A stretch of DNA of 64,000 nucleotides from an uncultured Nitrospiraceae bacterium (lineage in GTDB: Bacteria; Nitrospirota; Nitrospiria; Nitrospirales; Nitrospiraceae), in assembly GCA_963846575.1 (NCBI GenBank), contig CAWJWJ010000002.1, positions 3,410-67,409 on the forward strand, in the 5' to 3' direction. A program made the position numbers and the translations under genes. Numbering within the stretch: the stretch's first letter is position 1; each line of letters begins with the position of its first letter. Below are positions 8,955 through 27,152 of the stretch, in pieces. The notes beneath the pieces are model-generated. The model was not told the DNA's origin. It saw only the letters and a program-made list of their open reading frames with translations, and did not search any database.

Positions 8955-11900
8955 GCCGCGGTCTCCTTCGCGATCTCGCTTCGAAAAAGTGCGCAGGCAG
9001 CGAGGTACTCGGATTCCAGGTGAGCAAGAATGCGATCGGCCTCAATTAGTGTCTTGCGGCTGCCCATACCTTCTAATTCCTGACAGCGCGCAGCTACTGC
9101 GATAGCTCCGAGTTGGGCACTGCTCGATTTAAGCCGGTGTGCGATGGCCTGAACCGCTGCTGGGTTGTTCGCACGAATGGCGTCGCGGAGAGCATCCAGA
9201 CTCCCCCTGGAGTAATCAAGATACTTTCGCAACACGGCGGCCAATACACTGGGCCGGTTGGGGCGTTGTAATGCTCGGATATCGGCCAGGGCCTTGAGAT
9301 TGACGGCGGAGGGAACGGGGGTGGCCTCCACGGGCGGTTCGGTCGACAGGTCGGCCGCGTGGAGTCTAGAGGACATGTCAGGGGAGGATGCGTCAGATAC
9401 TGTCGCACGGTCGCCCGAAAGCCCTCTGGGCAACCATTTCACCACTACATCCCGCAATTGCATCTGGGAATAGGGTTTGGTCAGGTAATCATCCATGCCG
9501 GCCGCGAGGCATTGATCCCGGTCTCCTTGCATGGCATGCGCCGTCAACGCGATAATGGGCAACCGGCGTCGACCCGAGGATACTTCCTGTTGGCGGATTT
9601 TTTCGGTTGCCGTCAGGCCATCCATGCCAGGCATCTGGCAGTCCATCAAAATCAGATCGATATAATTTCCGCCGGCGGCCAACAAAGCCTGCTGCCCATT
9701 TTCTGCGAGCTCGACTTCATACCCGAGTAATTCCAGCATGCCAACTGCAACTTCTCGATTGACGGGACTGTCCTCAGCCAGGAGAATCCGTCTGCCGCCC
9801 GCCTGGGTCGTGCTGCCACGCGAGATGGATGTTGCGGTACACGTCGGTTCTCCAGCGGTCTGTCCCGAGGGCGGTAAGGGGGGATCCAGTCGTGGGCCGG
9901 GTGCGAAGTCGAGGGGGATGGTGTTTACGAAAGCCTGGCGGTCGAGCCAAGCCGTAAAGGAGAAGGTCGAGCCGCGCCCGGGAATACTGTCCACGGTAAT
10001 GGTTCCACCCATGAGGGTGACTAATTGTTTGACAATCGAGAGTCCCAGACCGGTGCCGCCGTATCGTCGGGTCGTTGAGCCATCGGCTTGTGAAAATGCA
10101 TCGAAAATGCGTGCTTTGGCCGCTGGGGGGATACCGATGCCACTGTCGGTCACGGCAATTCTAAGGAGCACCCGGCTTGCCGCGCTTTGCACTAAATCGG
10201 TGGTCAACGAGACTGTGCCGGTATCGGTAAATTTAATCGCATTGCTCAAAAGATTCATGAGAATCTGCCGGAGGCGCACCGGGTCACCCTTGAGATAGTG
10301 AGGCACTCCTTCGCCGGTGTGTTGAATCAGTTGAAGTGGCTTGCGTCGCGCCGCCTCGACGAATAGCTCAAGCGATTCCGACAGCACCTGCGATAGATCA
10401 AAACAGACAGATTCCAATTCCAGTTTGCCTGCTTCGATCTTCGAAAAGTCGAGAATGTCGTTGATGATCGCGAGAAGGGTTCGGCCAGACCGGTGCACGG
10501 TCGAAGCGAGATGCCTCTGCTTATCCGTGAGTTCGCTGTTTAACAATATTTCTGTCGTACCCAGCACGCCATTCATCGGAGTGCGAATTTCATGGCTCAT
10601 ATTGGCCAGAAATTCGCTCTTGGCTTTGCTGGCGGCTTCGGCCGCCTCTTTTGCCGCCCGAAGTTCTTGCTCGGTGTGTTTGCGGTCGGTGGTATCGATG
10701 TGGATGCCGACCATACGGGACGCGACGCCGGACGAACTGCGAAGGACAGTACCTCGTGACAAAATCCACCGATAGGATCCGTCCCGATGTCGAAGGCGGT
10801 GCTCACACTCAAACTGTTGCTGCCCGCCGTGAAGGCAAGCCTCAAGGGATTCGAGTGTTCGTTGTCGATCATCCTCATGAATTCGGGAGCGCCAGCTATC
10901 CAATTCATTGGCAAGGGTGGTCTCGTCAAACCCGAGATGATGTTTCCACTGCGGGGAGAGATAGACGGAGTTCGAGATAAGATTCCAGTCCCAGATCCCG
11001 ATGTGTGAGCCTTGCACCGTCATGGCCAACCGCTCTTCGCTTGTACGAAGGGCCTCTTCGGCCCGTTTCCGTTCCGTAATATCCACGACGAAGGCCGTGA
11101 AGGTGTAGGAATTCTCGATGTGTAGGGGGGTAACGGCCAACTCGATGGGGAACTCAGTACCATCGCGTCTTAAGGCGGTAATTTCAATCCGTTTATTCAG
11201 AATTGGGCCGTGGCCGGATTTCAGAAACTCCGCCAGTCCGCGCTGATGATCCCCACGATGGTCGGGAGGCATGATGAGGTCCACCATTCTGCAGCCGATG
11301 GCTTCGTGGCGTTGCCATCCGAATATGTGTTCGGCCTGCGCATTCCAATCTATGATCTCGCCCCTGTCGTCCATCCCGATGACCCCGCTGATGGCCGTGT
11401 CGATAATCAGCCGGGTACGACCCTCATTCTTGCGCAAGGCACGCTCAGCTTGGAGACGCTCCGCCGCTTCCAGGGCAAGGCAGACCAGTGAGGCGACGGC
11501 GGCGCTGAATTGCTGCTCTTCAAGCATCCAGGAGCGGGGTGCACCGGAATGTTCATGGCACAGTACGCCCACCAGTTTTCCCTTAAAGCGGATCGGGACG
11601 TCCAGCATGGCACGGATTCCGTTGGGGATCAGGTAGGTGTTCGCGAACTCGGCCGTGCGCGGGTCGGCAGTGGCATCGGCGGCATCAATGATGATGTGAG
11701 ATCCCAGCTCCCGAAAGTAATTGGGGTAGGTGTCCGCATGCATTTCCATGCCGGAGGAATGTGAGTCGCTAGACGACTCATACAGGTCTTTGCACTGCAG
11801 CACGCTGGAATCCCCGTTCAGGAACCAGATACCGGCTCGGCTCACGTTGAGGGTCTTGGCAGCGGTATGAGTAATTTCTTTCAGTGCATGTTCGAGCAAG

Positions 11901-12589
11901 CCACTTTGGAGAATGGTGTTGCGCGTCAGGTCTAGCAAGGCGGCTTGGTGCCGCCTCAGCATCTGTTCGGTCTCGTGGCGGATGGAGTCAGAGTATTTAC
12001 GCTCGCTAATGTCTCGAAACACGAGTACGGCGCCCGCCACACGGTTCTCCCGAACGATCGGAGCCAGAACATAGGAGACCGGAAACGCGCGTCCGCTGTG
12101 TGTGGTGAGCAATCCATCATCAGTTCGAAAGGTGTCCCCCTGGGCAGTTTCTTCCAAGAGGATTTGAGTGAAGATGGGCTCCGTGAGGGTGGTTCCAGAG
12201 GACAGAGAAATTAGGGTGGGGAGCGGACGGCCGACCACCTCCGTTTCACTGCAAGCCCAGAGGCGTTGGCCGGCCGGATTGAGTAACAGGACGTTCCAAT
12301 TCTGGTCCACCACACAGAGGCCATCGCCGATGGAACGTATCACCGTGTGGAGTTTGTCCCGCTCTTCGGTCAACCGGCTCTCGGAAGTCCGGCGCAGTTG
12401 CTCGTTCAAGGCCAGCATTTCGGTGGAAGAGAGCGCGATGGAACGTTCCAGGAGTTCATGCCCCTGATCTGATTCGACGTAGCTCTGGCTGACCCGCGCG
12501 AGAAGTTGCTGCCAACTCTCCGGAGATGGAGGTACGGTGGAGGGCTCCAGTCCCAGGCGTTTGAGTTGTCGTGTGAGCAGGGGATGCAT
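8951..12589 (-). CDS. Cytoplasmic hybrid histidine kinase (N-terminal domain-PAS-GAF-PAS-PAS-HisKA-HATPase-REC-HPt)
   Basis: PAS repeats; GAF ([21 protein letters not shown]); SHEIRTP; LMDCQMP; HPt AHRLKSSS; 4-bp overlap with the downstream gene. Confidence 0.93.
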
Positions 12590-12594
12590 AGGGG

Positions 12595-13746
12595 CTACGT
12601 TTCGTTAATGGTTGTCATCGTCATGGTCTGGTTGTGAAGATCGCAGGCCCCGCTCTTAGAGGATGAAATCTCACCATAGGAATAGAATCCGATCTGCCGG
12701 CTGCCTGGCGGAAGCATCTCCATGGTGGCTTCGGTCTCTTCCTCTGTTCGTTCTCCCAGTACCAACCGGCGCCCGACAGAACTGATGGCGATGGAGAGTC
12801 TGGAGGTGGCCTGCGCACTGGTTGCGTGGCCATCCGCCGTGAGCATCGCGGCATCGGAGGCGCCCTGGATCAAGCGGTCGAAATTCGCGCGCATCAGTTG
12901 CGCGTACATGCCTTGCGGAATGTCTCCCGCAAAAGTCAGCGATTGAGCGTCTTCGTCCACGGCCAGGATGGTACGGACCAGATTTTTCCCCTCCGAAAGC
13001 GAACCTCTTATCGCGAGCGGGAATAACAAACCCGTCGCGGGCAGGCCGGCCGCTCGTTCCCCGAGATACTCTTTGTACAGGTGCAAGGCCGGTCGCCCGT
13101 CCAATTCATACAGCACATGCCCGTTTGATCTGGTGACCAGGCGTTCCGGGCCGAACTTATCCCAACCGCCTCGGGAGCCGGTTCCAATGCGCACATAGTC
13201 GCCATAGAGGCCAGCGGCGATGACATAGCCACTCTGTGGGGCGCGATCTTTCAGGACCCACGTTCGCTTGAAGTGTGTTCCATCGCCGGCCAGACCTCCG
13301 GTGATGACCACCGGCAAACCGCCGATGGTGTCGTTTAGGCCCTTGACCAGTTCGCTGCCGTTCACATGCAGACCATCCGACAAGACTAGAATGGCCCGGA
13401 GTGATGGCCGTGCCAACTGGGAACCGATCGCCACTCCGGCAGAGTAGGAATTTTCAGAATCGTGCACGGCAGCTTGTGCCGTATGCACGGCAGTGTGGTG
13501 GAACCGCATGGAGGCAGCCACCAGGGTGTCATCCGAGATTTCACTGCCGTGAATTTCTCCGGCGGTGGAGCATCCGATGACATGACTTTGAGGGCAGGCG
13601 TCGAGGACCCGGCGGATGCGCTCAGGTTCGTCGATGAGACCCGGCGATCCGAACAGCACCAGGAGAGTGTCCGGCGAGTCCAATGCGGCGAATGACGACG
13701 GTGACCAGTAACCGTCGGCCTTGATACTGGTTGTCGCCAGTTGCAT
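12595..13746 (-). CDS. FIST N+C domain sensor protein (NosP-like)
   Basis: IGCSTAGEI, LSDGL..NG, GGLAGD, YELDG.PAL.LY..YLG, GFYSYGEI...LHNQT. Confidence 0.9.
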   Translation of the reverse strand: MQLATTSIKADGYWSPSSFAALDSPDTLLVLFGSPGLIDEPERIRRVLDACPQSHVIGCSTAGEIHGSEISDDTLVAASMRFHHTAVHTAQAAVHDSENSYSAGVAIGSQLARPSLRAILVLSDGLHVNGSELVKGLNDTIGGLPVVITGGLAGDGTHFKRTWVLKDRAPQSGYVIAAGLYGDYVRIGTGSRGGWDKFGPERLVTRSNGHVLYELDGRPALHLYKEYLGERAAGLPATGLLFPLAIRGSLSEGKNLVRTILAVDEDAQSLTFAGDIPQGMYAQLMRANFDRLIQGASDAAMLTADGHATSAQATSRLSIAISSVGRRLVLGERTEEETEATMEMLPPGSRQIGFYSYGEISSSKSGACDLHNQTMTMTTINET

Positions 13747-13953
13747 GACGCATCCCCCTCATGTACTCACTGCGGGGTTCATCTCCCGCATCTTGGTGAT
13801 GATCCGTCCTTCATACGATCAGGCGAGATTGCAGTAAGACGCCAGGGTTCGTTTTGATCAGCTCACTCCCGGATGCCGTATCTTTTCCTGCTTAGAAGAG
13901 CATCGATTGCAGTATTCCGATCTCGTCGTCGTGACGGTATTGGTGTCCCATTT

Positions 13954-13981
13954 ATATCGGCAGTAAGAGTAGGAAACTAAA
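13954..13981 (-). promoter_or_regulatory. Putative sigma28 (FliA)-type promoter of the FIST operon
   Basis: TTTAG-N15-GCCGATAT on the minus strand. Confidence 0.65.
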
Positions 13982-14114
13982 AAGAACTGATCGTAATTAG
14001 GCACCGTGGTTAACGCTCTAAGGATGTTCACGGTTTCCATTCAGCAGGCGCGGAACATCTGCTAAGTGTCTCCGCCGGCTGGATCCGGCAGAGCCGGTCA
14101 GACCTTGCTCGCAG

Positions 14115-17081
14115 TTACGTGTTCGAGCGCGTCCGCAATTCCAACTCCATCATTTGGCACGCCTTTTGGTGCGTGTGAATGAGTTGTTCGAGGAGCATAT
14201 CGGCCGAGTCGAATGCCTCCGAGCGTCCGAGCGTTTCCAATTTCCGGCAATGAGCGGCGGTGGCCAATGCACCTAACTGGGCACTGCTCGATTGCAACCG
14301 GTGAGCTGCATGGTGAAGCACCACTGGATCGCGACTCCGAACTGCCTGACTGATCTGCCCCACGAGCGCTCGGGAATCTTCCAGGTACTTAGCCAGCACC
14401 GTGGCTAGGATGCCGGGATGTCCCGGCCGCTGGAGCGCAACGATCGCCTTCCAAGCGTATGTATCGACATCAGGCGGGGCCGGCAGTGGCGGGGGGCAGC
14501 CCGGGCCTTGCGATAGCTCGCCAATGGAGGAGCGATGGGGTCGGTCGAGAAAACGCGTGAGGATGCGCTGGAGGTGGTCCTGCGTATAGGGTTTGGGCAA
14601 GTAGTCGTCCATGCCTACGGCTAAACACCGGTCGCGGTCGCCTTCCATGGCATCTGCGGTCAGTGCCACAATGGGCGTTCGTGGTCGGTTGAGTGTGGTC
14701 TGTTCATATCGGCGAATTGCCTCGGTAGCGGCAAAGCCGTCCATTTCCGGCATGTGGCAGTCCATCAAGATCAGGTCATAAGAGGTCAGAATGGCCGCGT
14801 CGAGCGCGAATCGCCCGTTGCCAACCACGTCGACGTGACAGCCGAATAGTTCCAGCATGCCGGTCGCCACTTCCTGATTGACGGGGTTATCCTCGGCGAG
14901 GAGGACTCTTTTATTGAGCGGTGAAGGATGGTGAGGAGTGACTGCGGGCGAAGACTCTGTTCCGGCCAGCTCTTTGGCGTACTCTCTGCGTTTGAGCACC
15001 ATCAAGACTTCGCGAAGGACCGACTGCCGAACAGGTTTGGAGAGCCATCGCCAAATATGAGCTTCTTCGGCGAGCCGTTGGTCATAGTTGACCGAACTCA
15101 ACATGAGGATGCGGAGCGACCGGAGGCATGGGTCTGCGTGGATCGCATGCGCAACTGCTAAGCCATCCATCTCCGGCATATGCATATCGAGAACGACAAG
15201 ATCGTAGGGAGCGCGTTCTGTGACGGCTTGTGCGAGTAAAGACAGTCCCCGGGGGCCGGAATCGGCGGATGCATGGGTGGCTCCCCACTGGGACAACTGC
15301 TCTTCGAGGATGAGCCGATTAGTTTCATTGTCGTCAATGATCAGGATGCGGAGTCCGCATAAGTCTTGCACCGGCGAAGGGGAGGAATCCGGCACGAGGG
15401 ATTGTTTCTCAAATTGGGCGGTGAACCAAAACGTGGACCCTTGTCCCGGGATGCTCTCGATCCCGATGGTACCCTGCATCAATACGGTCAAGTGCTTGCA
15501 AATGGCGAGGCCCAGGCCGGTGCCGCCGAATCGTCGGGTGGTCGAGCCATCAGCCTGGGAGAATGCTTGGAATAAACGTTGTTGGGTCGCGAGGGGAATC
15601 CCCTCACCGGTATCAGACACGCGGACCTGCAGCGACACGGTCTTGGCTGTTTCAGTCAGCGTGTTAATCAGCACGCTGACATGGCCCTGTGCGGTGAATT
15701 TTATCGCATTGCCGACCAGATTCAGGATGATTTGACGCAGCCGTACGGGGTCGCCGAGGAGATCCGTACGGCAGCTCTGGTGGATGTGATAAATCAGCTC
15801 GAGCCCTTTGCGTTGGGCAGGCTCCGCCATCAACTCCAGGGCTTCTTCGATCGTCTGCCGGAGATCGAACTCAATCAACTCCAACTCCAGCTTGCCCGCT
15901 TCGATTTTAGAGAAATCCAGAATGTCGTTGATAATCTGCAGCAGTGCCGTCCCGGAACGATACACGGTACCGGCCAGGTGCCTCTGTTTCGGCGTAAGAT
16001 CCGTAGAGAGCAGCAAATCGGTCATCCCGAGCACACCGTTCATCGGGGTTCGGATTTCGTGGCTCATATTTGCCAGAAATTGAGACTTCGCCTGGCTGGC
16101 GGCCTCGGCGACCTCTTTGGCACGGTAGAGCATCGCTTCTTGTTTTTTTCGTTCCGAGATGTCCCGGATAAATATGGAGAGATGTGGAACTCCACCCAAA
16201 ATGATGCAACTCATGGCCAATTCCACAGGAAACGCGTTGCCCCTGCGGGTGTTAGCGACCATTTCCATGCGGCGATTCGGGACGGCCCAGGGGATGGAGG
16301 TTGGGTGCGGGGTTACCGGATCCGCTGAAGACGTGTTGGTCAAGGTGGGAAGGTAGGTGCTCACCAAAGTCCCGATGGCCTCGGCTCGGGCGACTTCGAA
16401 CATTCTTTCCGCCTGAGCATTCCACTCTGTAATGATTCCTCCCGCATCGGTCGTGACAACGGCGTCGAGGGCTGTCTCGATGACCATGCCCATGCGTGTC
16501 CGGGTTTCACTTTCGATTGCCGCTGTTTGCGCGATCTCACTGACTCGCCAGAAGTAGGTGAGGGCGACGCATTCAGCCAGGATGAAGGTGCCATGGATCA
16601 GCGCCCAGTTCCACGGATGCGCTTGGCCGGAATCGTGGTTGTACACCATGGTCGGCATGAGCGTACCCATCAAGCCATGGTCGGCTATGATGAACAGGAT
16701 GCCGAACAGAAATGGGCCCCAGTCCTGGTACAACACAACAACGGCGATCATCACGAAAAAATGAAAATGCAGTTCGATGTACCCTCCGGACAGGTGCACC
16801 AGCATCGCAGATGCGGTCATCAGGCCGAAGGTGGCAACGACGGACTGGGTTCGGCAGTGGATGATCGATAGACGAGCCGTAAGGGCAAGCGAGGCCAGGA
16901 TGAGGCCCGCTCCGCCGCAGACGATGAGATCCGAGCCCATATAGGCCCCGAATAACGGAACCCCGAGGACATGGGACCACAGTACAAAGAGAATGCCCCG
17001 GTGGCGTGCGTTCCAGTCAGAGGTGCTGAGGGAACCGCCCCTGGGAAGGCATGACAGGATATATGACGAGCGAGTCGTCAT
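14115..17081 (-). CDS. Membrane hybrid histidine kinase (His-rich multi-TM sensor-PAS-HisKA-HATPase-REC-REC-HPt)
   Basis: About 6 hydrophobic segments including GYIELHFHFF; SHEIRTP; two receivers (VLDMHMP, LMDCHMP); HPt AHRLQSSS. Confidence 0.92.
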   Translation of the reverse strand: MTTRSSYILSCLPRGGSLSTSDWNARHRGILFVLWSHVLGVPLFGAYMGSDLIVCGGAGLILASLALTARLSIIHCRTQSVVATFGLMTASAMLVHLSGGYIELHFHFFVMIAVVVLYQDWGPFLFGILFIIADHGLMGTLMPTMVYNHDSGQAHPWNWALIHGTFILAECVALTYFWRVSEIAQTAAIESETRTRMGMVIETALDAVVTTDAGGIITEWNAQAERMFEVARAEAIGTLVSTYLPTLTNTSSADPVTPHPTSIPWAVPNRRMEMVANTRRGNAFPVELAMSCIILGGVPHLSIFIRDISERKKQEAMLYRAKEVAEAASQAKSQFLANMSHEIRTPMNGVLGMTDLLLSTDLTPKQRHLAGTVYRSGTALLQIINDILDFSKIEAGKLELELIEFDLRQTIEEALELMAEPAQRKGLELIYHIHQSCRTDLLGDPVRLRQIILNLVGNAIKFTAQGHVSVLINTLTETAKTVSLQVRVSDTGEGIPLATQQRLFQAFSQADGSTTRRFGGTGLGLAICKHLTVLMQGTIGIESIPGQGSTFWFTAQFEKQSLVPDSSPSPVQDLCGLRILIIDDNETNRLILEEQLSQWGATHASADSGPRGLSLLAQAVTERAPYDLVVLDMHMPEMDGLAVAHAIHADPCLRSLRILMLSSVNYDQRLAEEAHIWRWLSKPVRQSVLREVLMVLKRREYAKELAGTESSPAVTPHHPSPLNKRVLLAEDNPVNQEVATGMLELFGCHVDVVGNGRFALDAAILTSYDLILMDCHMPEMDGFAATEAIRRYEQTTLNRPRTPIVALTADAMEGDRDRCLAVGMDDYLPKPYTQDHLQRILTRFLDRPHRSSIGELSQGPGCPPPLPAPPDVDTYAWKAIVALQRPGHPGILATVLAKYLEDSRALVGQISQAVRSRDPVVLHHAAHRLQSSSAQLGALATAAHCRKLETLGRSEAFDSADMLLEQLIHTHQKACQMMELELRTRSNT

Positions 17082-17145
17082 GACGACTAACCTTTGTGAT
17101 GGCCTGTTGGAGCTTCGCCGAACGTGACGTAGCCTCGGCCTACCT

Positions 17146-17173
17146 GTATCGGCAGAAAGGTCGTGCAGCTAAA
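17146..17173 (-). promoter_or_regulatory. Putative sigma28 (FliA)-type promoter
   Basis: TTTAG-N15-GCCGATAC on the minus strand, 64 nt upstream of ATG 17081. Confidence 0.62.
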
Positions 17174-17277
17174 TAGGCACGGAGGATGATGTCGTTGAAC
17201 ATCAGTTGCGGAGGGCACCCACAGGGATGGCCGGGTTGTCAGGCCTTGCTCGGGACAGGCAGGATATTTAAATTTCG

Positions 17278-17976
17278 CTAGTGGTGGTGATGCTGACACT
17301 CCGGACTATGCACATGTGACGGCTCCGGGGGCGGGGGTGTCAGTTGTCCGGGGAGCAGGATTCGTCCGACTTCGTGTTGCTTGCTCAAGTGTTCAGCGAT
17401 TTCGGGGTGGAATGTTTTGACGTAACCGATCATGCCGTTCAGGAAGCGGCGCGATTGGAAGTCCTGGCCTGAAAACTCCGAAATAAGTGCTACGGCTCGG
17501 TCCAGAAGTTCCGGGGCTGACCCCAGGTCAGCGATTTGTTGAGGGTTTTGCTTGGCGAATGTATCGTATTCTTTTTTCAGCCGTTCTGCGAAGACCGGCA
17601 TTGGGGCAGCCGGTATATGGAGAGGGCTCAAGGTGCGGCGTAGGGCCTGAATGGCTGCAATGACCTCGGCATCCTGGCCGTCCCGGCGATCGTGGAAGTA
17701 GCCGAACGTGACGACTTCGATCAGGTTGAACAGGGCGGCGGCCTTTTCACCTCCTGCAACGCTCAGCTGTCTGTATAATTCCCGGCGGACGGGGGCGAAC
17801 TGGTCGCCGAGTCGCTTCTGCTGATAGTCGCTGCCGGTTTCGAGGTAGGCACAGTCAGGAGGACAGGAAATTCTTGTCAGACGATGTTCTCCGCAACATT
17901 GACTGCAGATCAGCCCGTTGAGTGCCGGACAGGAGCGTTTCCCTTTGCGCCGGCCACAATACACGCACTGGCTCAT
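17278..17976 (-). CDS. Hypothetical protein with an 8-Cys N-terminal domain and a His-rich tail
   Basis: C4,C7,C16,C24,C27,C28,C38,C42; ends HVHSPECQHHHH; ATGA overlap with the upstream gene. Confidence 0.8.
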   Translation of the reverse strand: MSQCVYCGRRKGKRSCPALNGLICSQCCGEHRLTRISCPPDCAYLETGSDYQQKRLGDQFAPVRRELYRQLSVAGGEKAAALFNLIEVVTFGYFHDRRDGQDAEVIAAIQALRRTLSPLHIPAAPMPVFAERLKKEYDTFAKQNPQQIADLGSAPELLDRAVALISEFSGQDFQSRRFLNGMIGYVKTFHPEIAEHLSKQHEVGRILLPGQLTPPPPEPSHVHSPECQHHHH

Positions 17977-18965
17977 TTGGCGGGTGATCCTTTCTTGTCG
18001 GATTGCAGCGGTTCCACGAATCCATAGTCCGCGAGGGTGCGTTTTGCTCGATCAGCCGAGGATGAGGCCACAGGAGACTCGAGTCCATTGACCTCGGCGG
18101 CATTCGAGTCCTGATAGGGGACGAGAATTAAGTGGTTTGCGCGGTCAATGCCCAGATCCGTGGGAGAGGGGAGGTATTCCGCGATCACCTGAAACTTCTT
18201 GTTGGGACCCATCCGCCAGATCTTGCCTTTCGTCGCATCCGCCACATACATGCTGCCCCAGCGATCAAAATCCACTCCGCTCAGATTTTGAAAGCGGGCG
18301 GTAAAAAACCCGTTCGAGACGAGTTCCGTGAGGGCCCCTTCGGGAGTAATCTCAAAGATTTTCCCTGAATCGTAACTCACTACGACGATATGTCCGGTTC
18401 TGGGATGAACCGCGACGCCTGATGGTCCGGCCAAATGTTTGCCGGACACATAGGTCGTGAGGGTTTGTGAGGGTGTGAGGTCGAGCCGATACACCGTATT
18501 GCCGAGCTGGTCCGCAAGATACAGGTGACCGTGACCATCAGCGGCCACATCTACGAGGGACTGTGCCGATCCGGCATCGGCTGGACGCGGGAGCACGATC
18601 GTGGAGAGAGGCTTGCCCGTTGTCTTGTCGAAGGCACGCAGGCTGTCGAGATCTGTGACGTACAAGACCTGGTCGACGACCGCCATCCCTTTGGGTGCAT
18701 GAAGCGTCACACCGCCGCGGCCACCTTCAATGAACTTGAAGGCCGTAATGCGTCCGTCGTCGCTGAGTTTAGTGATGAATCCATTGTTGTCGCGGGCTTC
18801 GGTCTCTCCGTTGATGTTGGAGATAAAGTAGGAATTCGTCGTGGGGTCAGCGAGGAAGCTATGCGGAGATTCCAACCCGCTGACCTGAAGGGCCAGGGCG
18901 AATGAGCAGTGAAGGACCCATGCTATCGCCGTTCCCAGCGTCAGTTCGACGGTGCGACGGCCCAT
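17973..18965 (-). CDS. Secreted beta-propeller protein, SMP-30/gluconolactonase/NHL-like
   Basis: GLESPHS, PKGMA, GPSGVAV, LSGVDFD, SPTDLG blade repeats; signal-like N-terminus; start moved to ATG 18965 (19007 possible). Confidence 0.8.
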   Translation of the reverse strand: MGRRTVELTLGTAIAWVLHCSFALALQVSGLESPHSFLADPTTNSYFISNINGETEARDNNGFITKLSDDGRITAFKFIEGGRGGVTLHAPKGMAVVDQVLYVTDLDSLRAFDKTTGKPLSTIVLPRPADAGSAQSLVDVAADGHGHLYLADQLGNTVYRLDLTPSQTLTTYVSGKHLAGPSGVAVHPRTGHIVVVSYDSGKIFEITPEGALTELVSNGFFTARFQNLSGVDFDRWGSMYVADATKGKIWRMGPNKKFQVIAEYLPSPTDLGIDRANHLILVPYQDSNAAEVNGLESPVASSSADRAKRTLADYGFVEPLQSDKKGSPAK

Positions 18966-19180
18966 GGACCGTCTTGAGACCCTGTGAGGAATGGTATCGG
19001 AAATCATGCCAGAAGGTGTCGCACAGAGGATTGTGTATCTGTATCGTAGCCAAGGGTCTCGGACACTGTCAAGGAAGCGACGACACCAGGCATAGAAAAG
19101 GGCTTCCGCCTGGTGCAGCGAGGATGGATCCTTTCGTTCGAGCTCCTCATCAGGTGTCGGGCTCGGGAGCTCCTCGATCG

Positions 19181-19210
19181 TTGACTTGTTGAAAAATGGC
19201 CTGCTATGGT
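19181..19210 (+). promoter_or_regulatory. sigma70-type promoter of folD-metF-panB
   Basis: TTGACT-N18-TATGGT with extended -10 TGn. Confidence 0.55.
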
Positions 19211-19251
19211 GCCCTGAATTTTTCGCATAATCTCTGCTCAGGGAGGACATT

Positions 19252-20112
19252 GTGGCTGCACGAATCATCGATGGAAGAGCATTGGCCCAGCAGGTCCGCG
19301 ACGGGCTCGCTAAGGAGTCCGCGGCGGTGTTGGCCAAAACGGGCATGAAGCCAGGCTTGGCCACCATCTTGGTGGGAGATGACCCTGCCTCGCATCTCTA
19401 TGTCAAAAGCAAACAGAAGGCGTGCGATGCGGCCGGAATATACATCGACGATTCCAAGTTGCCTGCCAACACGACTCAGGCTGATCTGCTCACGCTCATC
19501 TCCCAGAAAAATGCCGATCCAAAGATACACGGTATCCTCGTGCAACTTCCGCTTCCCAAGCATATCGACAGCAAGGTCGTCCTCGATGCCGTGTCCGCTC
19601 AGAAGGATGCCGACGGATTCCACCCATACAATTTCGGTCGCCTGGTGGAGGGCAGCCCGATTTTTGAGGCCTGCACGCCCAAGGGGGTCATCAAGATGAT
19701 CGAATCCACCGGCCTTTCGATCGAGGGCAAACGAGCCGTGGTGCTGGGACGCAGCAACATTGTCGGGAAACCGCTGGCGCTGATGTTACTTCACCGCCAT
19801 GCGACTGTGACCATTTGCCACTCGAAGACGAAAGATCTTCCGGCCGTCTGTCGTGAGGCCGAGTTGTTACTGGTGGCGATCGGGAAAGCTAGATTCGTCA
19901 CCGCCGATATGGTGCGCGAAGGGGCGGTCGTGATTGATGTCGGAACGAATCGCCTGCCGGACGGGAAGGTAGTCGGTGACGTCGACTTTGACTCGGTCAG
20001 TCAGAAAGCAGGTTGGATCAGCCCGGTTCCTGGCGGCGTGGGTCCAATGACGATCGCAATGTTGCTCGACAATACGGTGGAATCTGCTAAGAGAATGGCA
20101 GGAATGAAGTGA
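19252..20112 (+). CDS. folD: Methylene-THF dehydrogenase/cyclohydrolase
   Basis: YVKSK, GILVQLPLP, KDADGFH, GRSNIVGKP, PVPGGVGPMT; GTG start with GGAGG. Confidence 0.97.
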   Translation: MAARIIDGRALAQQVRDGLAKESAAVLAKTGMKPGLATILVGDDPASHLYVKSKQKACDAAGIYIDDSKLPANTTQADLLTLISQKNADPKIHGILVQLPLPKHIDSKVVLDAVSAQKDADGFHPYNFGRLVEGSPIFEACTPKGVIKMIESTGLSIEGKRAVVLGRSNIVGKPLALMLLHRHATVTICHSKTKDLPAVCREAELLLVAIGKARFVTADMVREGAVVIDVGTNRLPDGKVVGDVDFDSVSQKAGWISPVPGGVGPMTIAMLLDNTVESAKRMAGMK

Positions 20113-20179
20113 GCGCAGGCAGTCTACCGGGACAGAGGGGGGGAGAGTTGGAACGATTTGTCACGGATGGGAGCGACGC

Positions 20180-21070
20180 ATGAGCGCGGAGCCGCGACGG
20201 CTCAAGGACGTGTTGGCCCAGGGGCAATTTGCCGTCACGGTGGAATATAACCCGCCAAAGGGGACGAACCTGAGCCACGTGGTGGAGAGCGCCAAGACTT
20301 TGGTTGGCCGTGTGCATGGCGTCAACGTCACTGACAACACAGCGGCGATCGTCCGGGCGGGCTCGTTGCCGGTCTGTCGGGTGTTGTATGAGCTGGGACA
20401 CGATCCGGTGATGCAGCTCACCTGTAGGGATCGCAATCGTATCGCCATGCAGTCCGATCTCATGGGCGCGCACATGTTGGGTCTCCGAAACATTCTCTGT
20501 TTGACCGGGGATTATCCGACGGTCGGTGACCATAAAGAAGCCAAGCCAGTCTATGATCTGGATTCTGTTCAGGTCATGCAGTTGGTGCAAGGCCTGAATC
20601 AAGGGAAGGACTATGCGGGCAATAAGCTGGATGGAGCCACCGCCTTCATGATCGGCGGTGCCGTGACTCCAGAGGCCGACCCATTGGGTCCCATGTTGGT
20701 CAAGTTCGAAGTGAAGGTGCGGGCAGGGGTGGACTTCTTCCAGACCCAAGCCATCTATCAGCCGGAACAATTCAAGACCTTCATGCAGGCCGTGCGTCCC
20801 TTTAAGGTGAAGGTGCTCGCTGGAATCCTGCTGTTGCGGAGCGCCAAGATGGCAGAATTCATGAACGCCAATATCCCCGGCGTATGCGTCCCGCAGGACA
20901 TGATCGACGAAATGCGTGCCGCGGGCGACAAACGGGCTCTCGATGTCGGTGTGGAGATTGCCGTGCGAACGATCAAGGCCGTGCGCCCCTACTGCGATGG
21001 CGTGCATATTATGGCGATCAAGGCGACCGAACGGCTCCCGGAAATCCTGACGAAAGCGGAACTCGGGTGA
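20180..21070 (+). CDS. metF: 5,10-methylene-THF reductase, MetF (MetV-partnered type)
   Basis: EYNPPKG, NVTDN, MQLTCRDRNR, LCLTGDYP, FFQTQ, GVHIMAI. Confidence 0.9.
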   Translation: MSAEPRRLKDVLAQGQFAVTVEYNPPKGTNLSHVVESAKTLVGRVHGVNVTDNTAAIVRAGSLPVCRVLYELGHDPVMQLTCRDRNRIAMQSDLMGAHMLGLRNILCLTGDYPTVGDHKEAKPVYDLDSVQVMQLVQGLNQGKDYAGNKLDGATAFMIGGAVTPEADPLGPMLVKFEVKVRAGVDFFQTQAIYQPEQFKTFMQAVRPFKVKVLAGILLLRSAKMAEFMNANIPGVCVPQDMIDEMRAAGDKRALDVGVEIAVRTIKAVRPYCDGVHIMAIKATERLPEILTKAELG

Positions 21071-21858
21071 TGACCGTCCCGGACTTGCAGAAGTGCAAGC
21101 GTGAAACACGGAAGATCGCTGTGGTCACGGCGTACGACGCGCTGTTCACGCGAATCATTGAACAAGCGGGGATCGACGTCATTCTCGTCGGAGATTCGTT
21201 AGGCGTGGTGGTGCAGGGCAAGGCCAATACGTTATCGGTCACGATGGAGGAGATGCTGTATCACACCAGGCTGGTGGCCGGCGCGGCCCGGCGCGCCCTG
21301 GTCATCGGAGACATGCCCTTCATGTCCTACCAGGCCGGTACGGATGACGCCTTGCGCAACGCAGGGCGGTTTCTCCAGGCGGGGGCGACTGCCGTGAAAT
21401 TGGAGGGAGGCGCGGCGATGACGGATCGGGTGGAGGCCATGACGAGGATCGGCATTCCCGTCGTGGGCCATCTCGGAATGACCCCGCAATCCGTTCAGCA
21501 GTATGGCGGGTTCAAGGTGCAGGGAAAGGGAATGGACCAGGCTCAACAGCTCCTGAGCGACGCCAAAGCGCTGCAGGAATCCGGCGCGGTCGCCATTGTG
21601 CTTGAGGCCATTCCAGCCGAGTTGGCGAGATCCATGACGGAGGCGGTAGAGATCCCAACCATTGGCATCGGTGCCGGACCCTATTGCGATGGTCAAGTAC
21701 TGGTATTGTACGACCTGTTAGGCCTTTTTGATGAGTTCTCACCGAAGTTTGTGAGACCCTATGCCCATCTTAAGGCCAATGCCGAGGATGCCCTTCGCCG
21801 TTATAAAGACGATGTCGAACAGGGCAAATTCCCTTCCGACGCCGAAAGTTATCACTGA
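21070..21858 (+). CDS. panB: 3-methyl-2-oxobutanoate hydroxymethyltransferase
   Basis: TAYD, LVGDSLG, DMPF, VKLEGG, GHLGMTPQ, IGIGAG; TGATG coupling to metF. Confidence 0.97.
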   Translation: MTVPDLQKCKRETRKIAVVTAYDALFTRIIEQAGIDVILVGDSLGVVVQGKANTLSVTMEEMLYHTRLVAGAARRALVIGDMPFMSYQAGTDDALRNAGRFLQAGATAVKLEGGAAMTDRVEAMTRIGIPVVGHLGMTPQSVQQYGGFKVQGKGMDQAQQLLSDAKALQESGAVAIVLEAIPAELARSMTEAVEIPTIGIGAGPYCDGQVLVLYDLLGLFDEFSPKFVRPYAHLKANAEDALRRYKDDVEQGKFPSDAESYH

Positions 21859-21962
21859 TCGATGGTTCGAGCCTCTCTGCCCTCCTGATCGGGTGATGTC
21901 CCCGTCTCACTCAACTGGTCTTCTGCTGACGTGTTAGCCTGGCGCCGCTTGTCCGTTCCGGT

Positions 21963-22499
21963 TCAGACAGAGCGGTCGTCTGAGGAGCCGTCGGCAGGCT
22001 CAAGTATTATCCACACATGCGAATCTCGCTGGGCCTCCAGCCACCGCCTGAACCGGTCGGCCAAGGCGAGGGTGTCGACTCCCATGTAATGGGGGGGGAC
22101 GGTCTGCAAGCGCGCCAGACCTCGTTGGACAAGCTTCTCGGCCGCATCCTGGCAGCCCATAGCCTGTTTGAGATTCGCGGCAGCCAGTTGAATCAGAGCT
22201 TGGAAAAAGTTGCCTTCCTGGGTCGCGCGTCCATATCCGTGCCACAATCCCTCCAGGATCTCATGTGCCTCCCACCAGTAGGCGAAATTGTAGAGGTCGA
22301 TCGCGAAGAGATAATCCTCCGACCCGGCCCATTCCCCATGCCGGAAGATGCGCGGCGGTGTTTCCGTGAGACCGAAGGAATGACCCTCTGGATGGCGACG
22401 TGGATGTGGGGTTACGCCGGGAATAAATCGGTAGGGCGGAAAAACACGAGTGCTGTAGCGGGGCTGTACCGCTGGTGCAGGCGGCTCACTGCCTCCCAC
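21963..22499 (-). CDS. DUF309-family protein
   Basis: DLYNFAYWWEAHEILEGLW and QALIQLAAA motifs; GTG 22499 preceded by AGGA (ORF track start 22574). Confidence 0.8.
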   Translation of the reverse strand: MGGSEPPAPAVQPRYSTRVFPPYRFIPGVTPHPRRHPEGHSFGLTETPPRIFRHGEWAGSEDYLFAIDLYNFAYWWEAHEILEGLWHGYGRATQEGNFFQALIQLAAANLKQAMGCQDAAEKLVQRGLARLQTVPPHYMGVDTLALADRFRRWLEAQRDSHVWIILEPADGSSDDRSV

Positions 22500-23304
22500 G
22501 ATTGTCCTGACAGGTGACTTGATACACCTTACGATCTTCAAGGCAAACCGCCGTGAGTTGGCGTCCGTATACACAGCCGCTGTCTAGCGCCAGCAGATTC
22601 GGGGTCATATGAAGCCCCATGGCAGCCCAATGCCCTATGATGATGGTGGCCGTCGCATTGCGTCGGGATGGAATATTAAACCAGGGATGAAACCCCTCGG
22701 GAGTGGATTCCGGCGGACCTGAAAAGGATGATTCCATCAACCCGGAAACCGAGCAGGCTCTCAGTCGGGTGAGCACGTTGATGATGCTTGCGAAACGAGC
22801 GGGGCCGACGAGGTTGGGCGTCCATTGCAAATGTCCACTAGGATGGAGTGCGCGTAACGTGGCGGTGAACTGATCTCCACGAAGTGCAGTTTCGGCCTCT
22901 CGTGCCAATTGATGAGCTTCGTCAACCGTCCACTGAGGCAGCAATCCGGCATGGACCAACACCACATTCCCCTCCCGGTGGAGCAGGGGGCGCTGCCTGA
23001 GCCAGGCGAGCAGTTCATCTCTATCAGGAGCTTTCAAGATCGGCGTGAGTGTATCGCTTTGACGGAGGCTGGCCACACCCTCAGCAACAGCTAGCAAGAA
23101 TAGATCATGGTTACCCAGGACGGTAATGGCAGCCGGCCCCAGACTCTTGATGTATCTGAGGACCTGCAGCGATTCCGGCCCCCGATTAACCAGATCTCCC
23201 ACGAACCAAAGGCGGTCTTCTGGCGGATTGAAGCGAACCAACTGGGCAAGTTGCTGCAGGGAGGTGTAACAGCCTTGGAGATCACCGATTGCATAGCTCG
23301 CCAT
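22486..23304 (-). CDS. apaH: Symmetrical bis(5'-nucleosyl)-tetraphosphatase
   Basis: AIGDLQGC, GDLVNRGP, LGNHD, VHAG, GHWAA, LDSGCVYG metallophosphatase motifs. Confidence 0.93.
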   Translation of the reverse strand: MASYAIGDLQGCYTSLQQLAQLVRFNPPEDRLWFVGDLVNRGPESLQVLRYIKSLGPAAITVLGNHDLFLLAVAEGVASLRQSDTLTPILKAPDRDELLAWLRQRPLLHREGNVVLVHAGLLPQWTVDEAHQLAREAETALRGDQFTATLRALHPSGHLQWTPNLVGPARFASIINVLTRLRACSVSGLMESSFSGPPESTPEGFHPWFNIPSRRNATATIIIGHWAAMGLHMTPNLLALDSGCVYGRQLTAVCLEDRKVYQVTCQDNRGRQ

Positions 23305-23429
23305 AGATGCACTCAGACTAGCCTGGATGGCCTGGCTTCGCAAGCCGTGAAATGGTGTGCGAGTACCCAGGGCCTATTATGAAAAAGCCGACGGGATGCT
23401 GTAAACGATGGGTTGAATCAGCCGGGCAG

Positions 23430-26400
23430 TCAGCGTCCTTGGCGAGCCTGCAATTCCCGGTTCATGACAGCACAGGCGGCAGTATGGACTTGGGTGAGGT
23501 CCTGTAATAAATGTTCGGTCTGATCATGCCGGCCGAGGCGTCCTAGGATCTCCAGGTCCTTGCAGCGGGCCGCTGTTGCCAGAGCGCCGAGCTGTGCACT
23601 GCTCGATTTCAGGCGGTGTGCCGCCTGGTAGAGTGTGACCGGATCGTGGCTGTGCACAGCCATCTTAATTTGTTCGACCAACCGGCAGGAATCTTCGAGA
23701 TAGCTGCCAAGGACGCGTGCAAGGATGTCGGGCCGGCCAGGACGTTGCAGGGCCTGAATCGCAGCCCAGGCATTCTTATCGACTCCGTCCGCAATGGGCT
23801 GAGCTGAAGCGAGTGCCGGAGGATTGAGGCAATCGACAGGAGTGTCTTTCCCATGACCTTCAGAAGGTGTGGTGGGTTCTTTCAATGGTAGCCACCGGGC
23901 AAGCAGGGATTTCAGTTGAGATATGCTGAAAGGTTTTGTGAGGTAGTCGTCCATCCCCGCGGCGAAACAGCGGGCACGATCGCCCTCCATTGCGTTGGCC
24001 GTGAGCGCGATGATGGGGACGTGGCGTCGGCCGGTATTCTCTGCCTCCTGACGGCGAATGATTGCCGTAGCAGTAAAGCCATCCATCTCCGGCATCTGAC
24101 AATCCATGAGGATCAGGTCGAAGGTGTTCTCTGCTGCCGCTTCGACGGCTTCTCGGCCATCGCCCGCCACCGTCATGCTGCAGCCTAAAAGGTGGGCCAT
24201 CCCGAGTGTCACCTCGCGATTCACGGGGTTATCCTCGGTGAGCAGAATGTGTGCCCGTAGAGCAAGAACCTCCTGTCCGGTCTGTAATTCTGCGGGAGGC
24301 ATTGCTTGACTTACGCCTGTGTGAATGAGGTTCAGGCATTTCTGGAGCAGGGATCGACGAATCGGTTTTCTTAACCAGGTGTGAAAGCGGCTGTTGTGAG
24401 TCTCCGTTTGCTCTGGCAATCGATCCACCGCAGTAAGGGCGACGAGGGTGGTGCGGCGGAGCGCTGGGTCGCTCGCGATCGCATCCGCCAATGCCAATCC
24501 ATCCATGTCGGGCATGTGAATGTCCAGCAGCGCCGTATCGACGGGGATCCCCTGTTGTACGGACTGTTCCAGCAAGACCAGTGCTGTCGTACCGGAATCA
24601 GCGACCGTGACCGTAGCCCCCCACCCGCGCAAATACGACTCTAGGATTTGACGAGTGGTGGGATGATCGTCCACGACGAGAACGTGCGTACCGGCCAATT
24701 CTTGGCTCTCCAGGAGCGCGGTAGAGACTTCCGTTCCTCTTTCCAGGGTGAGGGTAAACCAGAAAGTCGATCCCCGTTCGGAGGAACTGGAGACGCCCAC
24801 TTCGCCACCCATCAGGTGGACCAGTTGTTTGACGATCGCCAACCCCAGACCGGTACCTCCGAAGCGGCGGGTGGTACTCCCATCAGCTTGCGAGAAGGCC
24901 TCGAAGAGCCGCTCACGGGCTGATGGGACAACGCCGATTCCGGTATCAGTCACCGTGCATTTCAGTGTAACGGTGCTAGGAGTCTGAGACAGAGGAGTGA
25001 CAGCCACGGTGACTTCGCCCTGTGAGGTGAACTTTATAGCATTGCTGACGAGGTTCAGAAGGATTTGACGCAATCGAACGGGATCTCCACGGGTGGAATC
25101 AGGAATCCCCTCAGCGATAAAACACGTCAGTTCCAGATGTTTTCTTGCTGCCGGCTCTGCGAGGAGTTCAATAGCTTCTTCGAAAGCGTACCGGAGGCTG
25201 AACTCAATTTTCTCTAATTCCAGCTTGCCAGCCTCCACTTTAGAAAAGTCGAGAATGTCGTTAATGATGTCGAGCAATGCCGATCCGGAACTACGGACGG
25301 TTTGGGCCAGCGACTGCTGCTTGGGGGTGAGGTTTGTGGAAAGCAGCAGCTCTGCCATGCCGAGGACGCCATTCATCGGCGTACGAATCTCGTGGCTCAT
25401 GTTTGCCAGAAATTGACTTTTTGCGATAGTCGCGGCCTCCGCCGTTTCTTTGGCATGCCGTAGTTCGTGCTCGGCGAGTTTTCTTTCCGAGATATCCCTG
25501 ATAAATCCGCTGAAGGTCGTGCCCGATGTCAGTCTAAGAGGTGTAATGGCAAGTTCAACGGGAAATTCCGTTCCATCTTGACGCAGCGCGGCTATCTCCA
25601 GCCGCTTTCCAATTGCTTTGCCTTGACCGGTCGCCAGATAGTGCTGCAGCCCCTTTTCATGTGCCTCTCGATAGGCGGTGGGAACGATGGTTTCCGATAG
25701 TTTCTGGCCTAGAATCTCCTGCCGTGTCCATCCAAAAATTTGCTCGGCCTGTGGGTTCCAATCAATGATTCGGCCGTGGTCATCCATCACGACGATCGCA
25801 TCCAACGCATGATCTACTATGGACCTCGTTCGTTCCTCGCTGTCGCGAAGTCCTCGCGTGAGAGGCGCACTGATGTGACGGTTGATGAGCCATCCAATAA
25901 TGAAAATCGTACTGAGCAGCCCCAGTCCCAGCATCCCGAGTAAATAGGTCCGTTCCTGAAGGACTGAGGTGGCTGCTCGTTCGATGTGTCGACGCTCCGC
26001 ATCCGCGAGTGCATCCAGGGCAAGAATTTCCTGACGATGTTGCTCAAAATAACGAGTAAGGGGGCCAGCTACCAAAGTGGTCATAGCTGCTCTATCGCCT
26101 CGTTCTGCGGCCGGCAGAAACTCCTCATTCCATACGTCGTAGAATCGTCGTGCCCACAGACCTGAGGCATTGATCAGTTTGTCGTGGAGCGGTCCCGGCG
26201 GAAGGCGTTTATGCCATTCATTCTCTTTTAAGATGTATTCTTGTTGGAGACGCTGGAATCGTTCGATGAGCACTGGCGATTGGGCAGGAGGAACTACGAG
26301 CAGTTCCAACGTGGCGAGATAGGATTCAACAATGTAGAGAGGAGGAGGAAGCGTATCAACGACGAGATCTTTGCTGGCTACAATTTTGACATACAGCGGG

Positions 26401-26546
26401 CCATGAATCTGTATGGTGGTGACCGTATCGCGCACCATGAGAGTAAATGCTCCGGTGGCCAGGATCGCGACGCCGATCAGAAGGCCGAGCCGAAGTTTGA
26501 TCGATTCGGGCTGCTTCGTAGGAAAGGTCGACTGTGCTGGATTCAC
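23430..26546 (-). CDS. Membrane hybrid histidine kinase (periplasmic helical sensor-PAS-HisKA-HATPase-REC-REC-HPt)
   Basis: Two TM helices flanking KDLVVDTLPPPLYIVESYL; SHEIRTP; two receivers; HPt AHRLKSSS; GTG 26546 with GGAG (ORF track start 26591). Confidence 0.92.
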   Translation of the reverse strand: MNPAQSTFPTKQPESIKLRLGLLIGVAILATGAFTLMVRDTVTTIQIHGPLYVKIVASKDLVVDTLPPPLYIVESYLATLELLVVPPAQSPVLIERFQRLQQEYILKENEWHKRLPPGPLHDKLINASGLWARRFYDVWNEEFLPAAERGDRAAMTTLVAGPLTRYFEQHRQEILALDALADAERRHIERAATSVLQERTYLLGMLGLGLLSTIFIIGWLINRHISAPLTRGLRDSEERTRSIVDHALDAIVVMDDHGRIIDWNPQAEQIFGWTRQEILGQKLSETIVPTAYREAHEKGLQHYLATGQGKAIGKRLEIAALRQDGTEFPVELAITPLRLTSGTTFSGFIRDISERKLAEHELRHAKETAEAATIAKSQFLANMSHEIRTPMNGVLGMAELLLSTNLTPKQQSLAQTVRSSGSALLDIINDILDFSKVEAGKLELEKIEFSLRYAFEEAIELLAEPAARKHLELTCFIAEGIPDSTRGDPVRLRQILLNLVSNAIKFTSQGEVTVAVTPLSQTPSTVTLKCTVTDTGIGVVPSARERLFEAFSQADGSTTRRFGGTGLGLAIVKQLVHLMGGEVGVSSSSERGSTFWFTLTLERGTEVSTALLESQELAGTHVLVVDDHPTTRQILESYLRGWGATVTVADSGTTALVLLEQSVQQGIPVDTALLDIHMPDMDGLALADAIASDPALRRTTLVALTAVDRLPEQTETHNSRFHTWLRKPIRRSLLQKCLNLIHTGVSQAMPPAELQTGQEVLALRAHILLTEDNPVNREVTLGMAHLLGCSMTVAGDGREAVEAAAENTFDLILMDCQMPEMDGFTATAIIRRQEAENTGRRHVPIIALTANAMEGDRARCFAAGMDDYLTKPFSISQLKSLLARWLPLKEPTTPSEGHGKDTPVDCLNPPALASAQPIADGVDKNAWAAIQALQRPGRPDILARVLGSYLEDSCRLVEQIKMAVHSHDPVTLYQAAHRLKSSSAQLGALATAARCKDLEILGRLGRHDQTEHLLQDLTQVHTAACAVMNRELQARQGR

Positions 26547-26596
26547 ACGCTCTCCAGGTAGCACGATCTGGGTAGCCAGGAATATGGCCATTTTTC

Positions 26597-26624
26597 TTAT
26601 CGGACGACCCTGGTTCGGTCTTTA
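26597..26624 (-). promoter_or_regulatory. Putative sigma28 (FliA)-type promoter
   Basis: TAAAG-N15-TCCGATAA on the minus strand. Confidence 0.62.
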
Positions 26625-27152
26625 CCGTTCAGATTTTCGATGCAGGCTGCTAGGCCTGTTGAACTCCCTGAGGGCCATAGGCTTGAGCCAATGGGCGCCG
26701 CGAGGGCAAGATGTGCGGATTGAAGTCGCAGAGCGCTAGTGGGGGGAGATTGAAGACAGTTCTATTGTCTGGGGACCTTGTCGTCGAATGCGAGAACGAC
26801 TAGTGTGCCACACAGCGTGTGATTCAGCTGGCCTGAGCGCACGAGTCGAATAATGTCTTAGAATTGGTGAATACTCCAACGTCTCCAGGCTGGCTCGGTT
26901 CGGATCTACCTATCTCGGAAGCCGGTATGAAAATGCATGGGTTGATCAAGATACGTTGCGTTGCTGGGGTGGCCGGACTATATGAGAAGACTACTTCTTT
27001 GGAGCATGCGTCAGTCGAGAACCTGCAGCTGTGACGATCGGAGTTTCCGAGCGGTTTGGCGTGGCCTTATCAATACGAGGCAATTGAGTTTGCAAGCATT
27101 GAGCATAAACCAAGGGTGCAACTCACGGGCGTGCGATCCGGAATTGATGCTC

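Follow-up and report, generated by a model that had tools for sequence, protein, structure and literature searches.

Do the sensor kinases scattered over this locus answer to a single alternative sigma factor and, if so, to which one? The locus is a stretch of 64,000 nucleotides (nt) of contig CAWJWJ010000002.1 from an uncultured Nitrospiraceae bacterium (the window, in what follows), with three histidine kinase units on its minus strand. The initial annotation placed the same sigma-28-like promoter in front of each unit and took the dispersed kinases to be one regulon, expressed together with late flagellar and chemotaxis genes. A shared two-block motif does precede all three units (sites 1 to 3, Table 1), and it is very probably real and functional as a promoter, the case being strongest for site 2, then for site 3 and then for site 1. 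The motif is probably read by a factor of the sigma-28 family, and it may tie the kinases to the late flagellar/chemotaxis programme, for which the chances seem a little short of even. The best explanation overall is a set of alternative-sigma promoters, most likely read by the Nitrospira FliA, which we consider fairly likely. The case for a genuine promoter is made by the motif's statistics and conservation, by the absence of other promoter types nearby and by a transcript boundary in one relative.

The motif in the window

The sites, spacing and letters first described for the minus strand are all correct to the base. The motif lies 5' of a kinase unit and in its orientation in each case, within upstream regions of 368, 196 and ~560 nt (minus strand 13747-14114, 17082-17277 and 26592-27152). 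The pattern TWWAG-N15-KCCGATA has three matches on both strands of the 64-kb window, and these are sites 1 to 3, against an expectation of 0.04 from 100 dinucleotide shuffles, 0 of which reached three; since the pattern was written post hoc from the sites themselves, the observed/expected ratio is overstated. The CCGATA hexamer occurs in 41 copies in 128 kb (both strands), and only 3 of the 41 have TnnAG at the 15-nt gap. The canonical pattern TAAAG-N14/15-GCCGATAA with up to three mismatches is not enriched in the window (15-16 observed vs 11 expected), so the signal resides in the specific shared form. Alignment of the three upstream regions gives no similarity except at the motif, and a recent duplication of the entire upstream regions is thereby ruled out. 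The predicted transcript starts are ~17138 for site 2, ~13946 for site 1, giving a leader of ~200 nt, and ~26589 for site 3.

Other promoter types are scarce in the same three regions. The sigma-70 pattern TTGACA-16/18-TATAAT has no match there on the minus strand at 9 or more of 12 positions, and neither sigma-54 (TGGCAC-N5-TTGCW) nor sigma-32 (CTTGAA-N13-17-CCCCAT) has a strict match. The invariant G of CCGATA also conflicts with the CCCCAT of sigma-32. The extracytoplasmic function (ECF) sigma pattern AAC-N16-18-CGT gives one loose string, at 14037, which is not common to the other upstream regions.

Table 1. Motif sites and kinase units of the window (positions in the window; aa, amino acids)
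Feature	Position	Strand	Description
Site 1	13954..13981	(-)	TTTAG (13981-13977), N15, GCCGATAT (13961-13954); between 988-aa kinase and FIST gene
Site 2	17146..17173	(-)	TTTAG (17173-17169), N15, GCCGATAC (17153-17146); upstream of 988-aa kinase
Site 3	26597..26624	(-)	TAAAG (26624-26620), N15, TCCGATAA (26604-26597); upstream of 1053-aa hybrid kinase
Unit 1	7707..13746	(-)	FIST protein (12595-13746), 1212-aa PAS/GAF hybrid kinase (8951-12589), 415-aa receiver-kinase (7707-8954); Pfam
Unit 2	14115..17081	(-)	988-aa hybrid histidine kinase with membrane N-terminus, PAS, HisKA, HATPase, two receivers and Hpt; Pfam
Unit 3	23430..26591 as listed	(-)	1053-aa hybrid kinase; Pfam

Conservation in related loci

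With the FIST protein as query, 72 loci (812 kb; loci are given as L numbers) were obtained from metagenomes. Thirty of them, with 66-76% FIST identity and enough upstream sequence, were joined by L155 and L157 to make 32 loci with 31 distinct sequences. CTT(T/C)AG-N15-nCCGATA is found on the operon strand in all 32, the orthologous consensus 5' of the operon is CTTTAGTT-N13-nCCGATACAGG, and CCGATA is present in 31 of the 31 distinct sequences. The N15 gap is common to the three window sites, the 32 orthologous loci and L153, the locus with an intact counterpart of site 3. A relaxed N14-N16 scan of the first 72 loci (812 kb) finds no version with another spacing, and its only off-target sites are three weak ones, in L094 and L108.

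Identity is concentrated in the two blocks. As the mean pairwise value over the 31 distinct sequences, it is 0.38 in the 60 nt upstream, 0.95 in the CTTTAGTT block, 0.44 in the 9-nt variable spacer, 0.92 in the TTCTnCCGATA block, 0.74 in the 10 nt after the -10 block and 0.42 in the further leader. Part of the block identity is ascertainment, as the search pattern fixed CTT.AG and CCGATA, but positions left free in the pattern are near-invariant too: the TT after TTTAG, the TTCT (TT.T) before CCGATA, and the CAG after it, of which C, A and G are each found in 29-30 of the 31 sequences. Sequence comparison thus supports strong purifying selection on the motif in Nitrospira relatives.

The typical gene order in these loci is a 232-aa gene, the motif, a kinase of 580-583 aa, FIST, a large hybrid kinase and a receiver-kinase, with 15-40 nt between the short kinase and FIST, or with the two genes overlapping (L158). 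Over residues 1-195, the window's 988-aa kinase shares 59-64% identity with the short kinase in the 20 loci that match in full. Site 2 reaches 31.9 bits on a matrix derived only from other species' orthologous loci, and its leader, CAGGTAGGCCGAGGCTACG, resembles the ortholog consensus CAGGCGnGCCAAGACCTACG. Site 2 is taken to be the ancestral operon promoter because of the shared synteny and orthologous kinase together with this score.

The short kinase that follows the promoter is repeatedly lost or reduced in the relatives, with remnants at L093:2484-2732, L097:6766-6894 and L157:140-515, and it is gone from L094:9712-10000. Where it is lost or reduced the promoter is retained, at ~300 nt from FIST, leaving a long leader. 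The region 10-40 nt 3' of CCGATA (L081-L159; window 17145-17110) comes in two sequence types, CAGGCGnGCCAAGACCTACGACTG... or CAGTCGAGCCACATTCTGCAC...GGACAGGATG, and ~60 nt downstream, close to the short kinase's start codon, there is a TTGAAA-like string. The conserved initial transcribed region may fold as a leader or bind a regulator.

Site 1 appears, from the sequence comparisons, to be an internal promoter copy restricted to the window's lineage. Residues 8-570 of the 988-aa kinase are orthologous (58%) to the 580-583-aa non-hybrid kinase (L081:8234-9985; L155:8218-9960), and residues 570-988 are an added REC-REC-Hpt segment, 51-52% identical to the paralog that adjoins the phosphoesterase gene. 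The extended kinase and the 368-nt spacer with the second motif are found in the window only, with none among the relatives examined, and nothing homologous to the spacer is present in the fetched DNA. A scan of genome contigs with the full 988-aa kinase gave only generic hybrid kinases from many phyla, matching in the C-terminal part at no more than 54% identity, and no orthologous promoters. Site 1 scores 12.7 bits on the ortholog matrix. In a very small sample, a soil strain variant of the window organism carries three substitutions (13946, 13949 and 13973), none of them in the -35 or -10 block.

The kinase downstream of site 3 is rare, its N-terminal sensor domain having four matches among 5.8 billion proteins. 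L153, a Nitrospiraceae metagenome-assembled genome by its NCBI label, is the sole contig with an intact upstream region, and it has the same QueF-kinase arrangement with 62% protein identity. Its motif is TTAAG-N15-TCCGATAAGGAAAAG vs TAAAG-N15-TCCGATAAGAAAAAT in the window, with a different spacer sequence, and its kinase start codon lies 45 nt after the 8-mer. L155 has TTATG-N15-CCCGATAAGGGAG beside an internally deleted kinase remnant (782-1939) of which only N- and C-terminal fragments survive, flanked by QueF and the phosphoesterase gene. The corresponding slot of L094 is taken by another hybrid kinase, with CTTCAG-N15-ACCGACAC in front of it. On the ortholog matrix site 3 stays below 12 bits, and its support consists of the intact ortholog in L153 and the traces in L155 and L094.

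The ortholog of the 1053-aa kinase at L154:1-443 looks frameshifted, and in other species the slot holds a different hybrid kinase or a tandem pair (L094, L095, L096, L102, L109).

The proposal of one promoter before three kinase units therefore stands as far as the shared two-block motif and its fixed gap go, but the units are not equivalent: site 2 is ancestral, site 1 is a lineage-limited copy and site 3 is a sequence-distinct sub-type.

Transcript boundaries and the sigma factor

DNA runs contain no more than 19% of the window's words and no run represents its organism well; the RNA evidence comes from relatives' loci. L094, a wastewater Nitrospira by its NCBI label, has its locus present in 20 metatranscriptome runs, 12 of which were examined. 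Contigs of the upstream gene stop between 9444 and 9642, and the interval 9643-9700, with the -35 block (9678-9683) and the spacer that precedes the 8-mer (9699-9706), is uncovered in 12 of 12 runs. The downstream contigs start at 9701, 9721, 9734, 9749, 9756 (four runs), 9811 and 9938, with eight of the ten starting by 9756; in most runs they begin 15-51 nt after the 8-mer with nothing upstream. At the second L094 motif (8-mer 136-143) contigs start at 166 and 169, and the upstream side is empty in three of four runs. The exception at both motifs is one run, X14, in which DNA carry-over or read-through is therefore suspected. Site 3 and its surroundings were found in 0 of the 4 runs tried.

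The start at L094:9756 is the same base in four runs from two studies, 50 nt after the end of the 8-mer, and it may reflect RNA processing, a break in the assembly graph caused by strain variants, or an artefact. The motif is unlikely to be transcribed as a riboswitch or small RNA, given that the L094 -35 block and spacer are uncovered by RNA contigs and that Rfam is empty in the window.

The match to the FliA/SigD consensus that had been claimed for the -10 element is borne out, as GCCGATAT, GCCGATAC and TCCGATAA each share 7 of the 8 positions of GCCGATAA. A CCGACA variant works in the aer promoter of E. coli, TAAAGATA-n11-GCCGACAT (PMC2859248), and the variant in L094 is the same CCGACA. 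In the -35 element, site 3 has TAAAG and L153 has TTAAG; the T..AG and the following TT fit the consensus, but the middle two bases of TTTAG do not. N. defluvii and Nitrospira sp. ND1 have fliA, flgM and flagellin, with a FliA 44% identical to the P. aeruginosa protein (PMC5767232, supplement 2), and N. japonica NJ1 is without flagellar genes (PMC5767232). Literature searches on Nitrospira with fliA or sigma-28 promoters gave no promoter data. In the window and L001-L154, tblastn with approximate queries for a chemoreceptor, CheY, CheW, flagellin and FliA gives matches in non-Nitrospira loci only.

Among known systems, the FliA/sigma-28 class III (late) promoters of E. coli, Salmonella and P. 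aeruginosa, TAAAGTTT-n11-GCCGATAA, are like the sites in having two blocks, a GCCGATA(A/T/C) -10, a -35 that ends in AG and is followed by TT, and a spacer of variable sequence. Unlike them, the sites usually have TTTAG at -35, a 15-nt gap and, in the orthologs, an unconserved first G of the 8-mer, and the targets here are hybrid histidine kinases and FIST, not flagellin, motor or chemoreceptor genes. SigD promoters of Bacillus subtilis have the form TAAA-N15-GCCGATAT, and site 1 is exactly of the GCCGATAT form, but the -35 and spacing differ in the same way as from FliA, and the phylum is a different one. The sites also resemble the promoters of WhiG in Streptomyces, whose targets include response regulators, and of the Chlamydia sigma-28 in that a sigma-28-type promoter stands before regulatory or developmental genes and not before flagellar structural ones. 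Unlike those cases, most Nitrospira have flagellar genes and FlgM, and a dedicated non-flagellar role is not required. The promoter kind is known; what appears new is the target set, in an understudied phylum, with a -35 form and spacing that are slightly non-canonical.

Several observations weigh against FliA, or against the boundary in L094 as a transcription start. TTTAG(TT), the -35 of sites 1 and 2 and of 28 of the 31 orthologs (3 of the 31 have TTCAG), is two bases off TAAAG, and in E. coli aer a change from TAAAG to TATAG lowers sigma-28 promoter activity from 223 to 26 units, ~9-fold (PMC2859248). The first G of the 8-mer, part of the 'extended -10', varies in the orthologs, with G in 19, A in 9 and T in 3 of 31. 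The gap is N15 and not the canonical N14 (11 nt between the 8-mers), one base above the E. coli consensus as initially noted; P. aeruginosa fliC, with TCTAAAG from -36 to -30 and GCCGATAA from -15 to -8, likewise has N14 (PMC12784957). The one-base difference may be tolerated, and PMC12784957 describes the spacer length as not conserved. The RNA data are assembled metatranscriptome contigs and not read ends, and they give a transcript boundary rather than a mapped start. One of the L094 runs starts at 9701, 5 nt before the end of the 8-mer, and a second species with mixed strains, L081, is ambiguous, with low-depth contigs that cross the motif and a depth that rises three- to five-fold just after it. 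The operon is also expressed in floc and biofilm reactor communities at a depth like that of its neighbours, which is unlike a tightly motility-gated set.

On the favoured explanation, each site would be a promoter of alternative-sigma type, with a TnnAG(TT) -35 and an nCCGATA(C/A/T) -10 exactly 15 nt apart, read by RNA polymerase carrying the Nitrospira sigma-28 family factor. Site 2 would be the ancestral, genus-wide promoter of an operon for the membrane kinase, FIST, the PAS/GAF hybrid kinase and the receiver-kinase. In the window's lineage the first kinase would have gained its REC-REC-Hpt tail, with a copy of the promoter, site 1, now standing before FIST, and site 3 would drive the paralogous hybrid kinase 9 kb away. 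Release of FliA under the control of FlgM would couple the kinases to late flagellar and chemotaxis expression, a coupling that follows from the presumed identity of the sigma factor.

The departures of TTTAG and N15 from the flagellar consensus, both of them conserved, are also what would be expected if the promoters are real but serve a sigma factor outside the flagellar hierarchy, of the sigma-28 family or otherwise of group 3. It could be a FliA with an altered -35 preference, or a paralog, with a signalling regulon of its own, as WhiG has in Streptomyces and sigma-28 in Chlamydia. In ~0.9 Mb of Nitrospira loci the motif precedes these kinase units only, the operon is expressed in reactor biomass, and non-flagellar regulons of the sigma-28 family are documented (PMC12871210). 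The loci examined hold no flagellar genes, however, so the missing flagellar targets are uninformative; site 3 has the canonical TAAAG, and no second sigma-28-like gene was seen, though no search for one was made. We consider this explanation unlikely. Its strongest form, in which a sigma-28 factor of shifted specificity (TTTAG, 15-nt gap) runs a multi-kinase/FIST regulon independently of flagellum assembly and is kept even in flagella-less species, seems somewhat less likely again; if true, it would give a free-living nitrifier a sigma-28 regulon of non-flagellar kind, with Streptomyces WhiG as its parallel.

Conservation also extends past the canonical elements, with TTCT before and CAGGCGnGCCA after CCGATA, as might be the case with a regulator site overlapping a promoter, and GATATA and GATAAG are weak relatives of TATAAT. 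The blocks could accordingly be mainly a transcription-factor site, or a housekeeping-sigma promoter with an unusual -10 (GATACA/GATAAG), the likeness to sigma-28 being coincidental. This is improbable: paired conserved blocks at a constant distance, separated by sequence that varies, are the hallmark of recognition by a sigma factor, no dyad symmetry is seen, the sigma-70 scan is empty in all three regions, a sigma-70 -10 would leave the invariant C-C-G before ATA unexplained, and three otherwise unalignable regions share only these blocks. Just as little weight is given to the view that site 2 alone works and that there is no three-unit regulon, site 1 having been left behind by the rearrangement that produced the 988-aa kinase, and site 3 matching by chance or being in decay. 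The low matrix scores of sites 1 and 3 would fit, as would the lack of a counterpart of site 1 in relatives and the frequent loss or replacement there of the kinase 3' of site 3. On the other hand, site 1 retains GCCGATAT and TTTAGTTTC in perfect form, the 368-nt gap contains no further promoter, and the strain variant alters spacer and downstream bases but spares its blocks. For site 3, the -10 neighbourhood (TCGTCCGATAAG-AAAA) and the gap length are kept in L153 at 62% protein identity, and the degenerate related motif 5' of the positional ortholog in L094 adjoins an RNA boundary.

Nitrospira are the main nitrite oxidisers, and the complete ammonia oxidisers, of soils and treatment plants, and almost no transcription signals or regulons are known for them. 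A genus-wide promoter of alternative-sigma type before a FIST/multi-kinase operon would provide a testable regulatory handle. Should FliA read the motif, the kinases would be wired to the switch between motile and attached life that governs floc and biofilm formation in reactors; should another factor read it, a new regulon would be defined. The motif may also be used for scans of Nitrospira genomes and for the correction of gene starts, as with the 1053-aa kinase (see below).

Host and kinase units

The window encodes ATP-citrate lyase, a five-subunit 2-oxoacid:ferredoxin oxidoreductase, aconitase, a monomeric isocitrate dehydrogenase, fatty-acid synthesis and cytochrome c maturation. Its GC content is 55%, and the NCBI labels of its relatives are Nitrospira or Nitrospiraceae. 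The reductive tricarboxylic acid cycle gene content, the GC content and the labels of the relatives point to a Nitrospira-type nitrifier. The window is free of flagellar and chemotaxis genes, of tRNA genes and of Rfam matches.

The three large kinases are paralogs, with 48-52% identity from PAS through Hpt, and the three-gene order of unit 1 is identical in every full-length related locus. A near-identical Hpt segment is common to all three paralogs (window 8951-26591) and to the Nitrospira relatives. By its sequence, this hints at a common downstream partner for the three hybrid kinases, in the style of a multi-kinase network.

The first ATG of unit 3 (26591) follows the -10 block by only 6 nt and falls where transcription is predicted to begin. 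A GTG at 26546 is preceded, at a distance of 5 nt, by a GGAG ribosome site, and it corresponds to the start called for the L153 ortholog. The GTG is probably the true start of the 1053-aa kinase, which would make the listed open reading frame 15 codons too long. A sigma-70-like sequence, TTTACA-18-CATAAT (10 of 12 matches; 23405-23376, minus strand), lies between the stop of this kinase and the phosphoesterase gene. Since this sequence precedes the next gene, the kinase is probably monocistronic.

In a close relative, a DUF772 transposase gene (L159:2222-3364) stands between a DUF309 gene and panB, and the synteny is otherwise kept.

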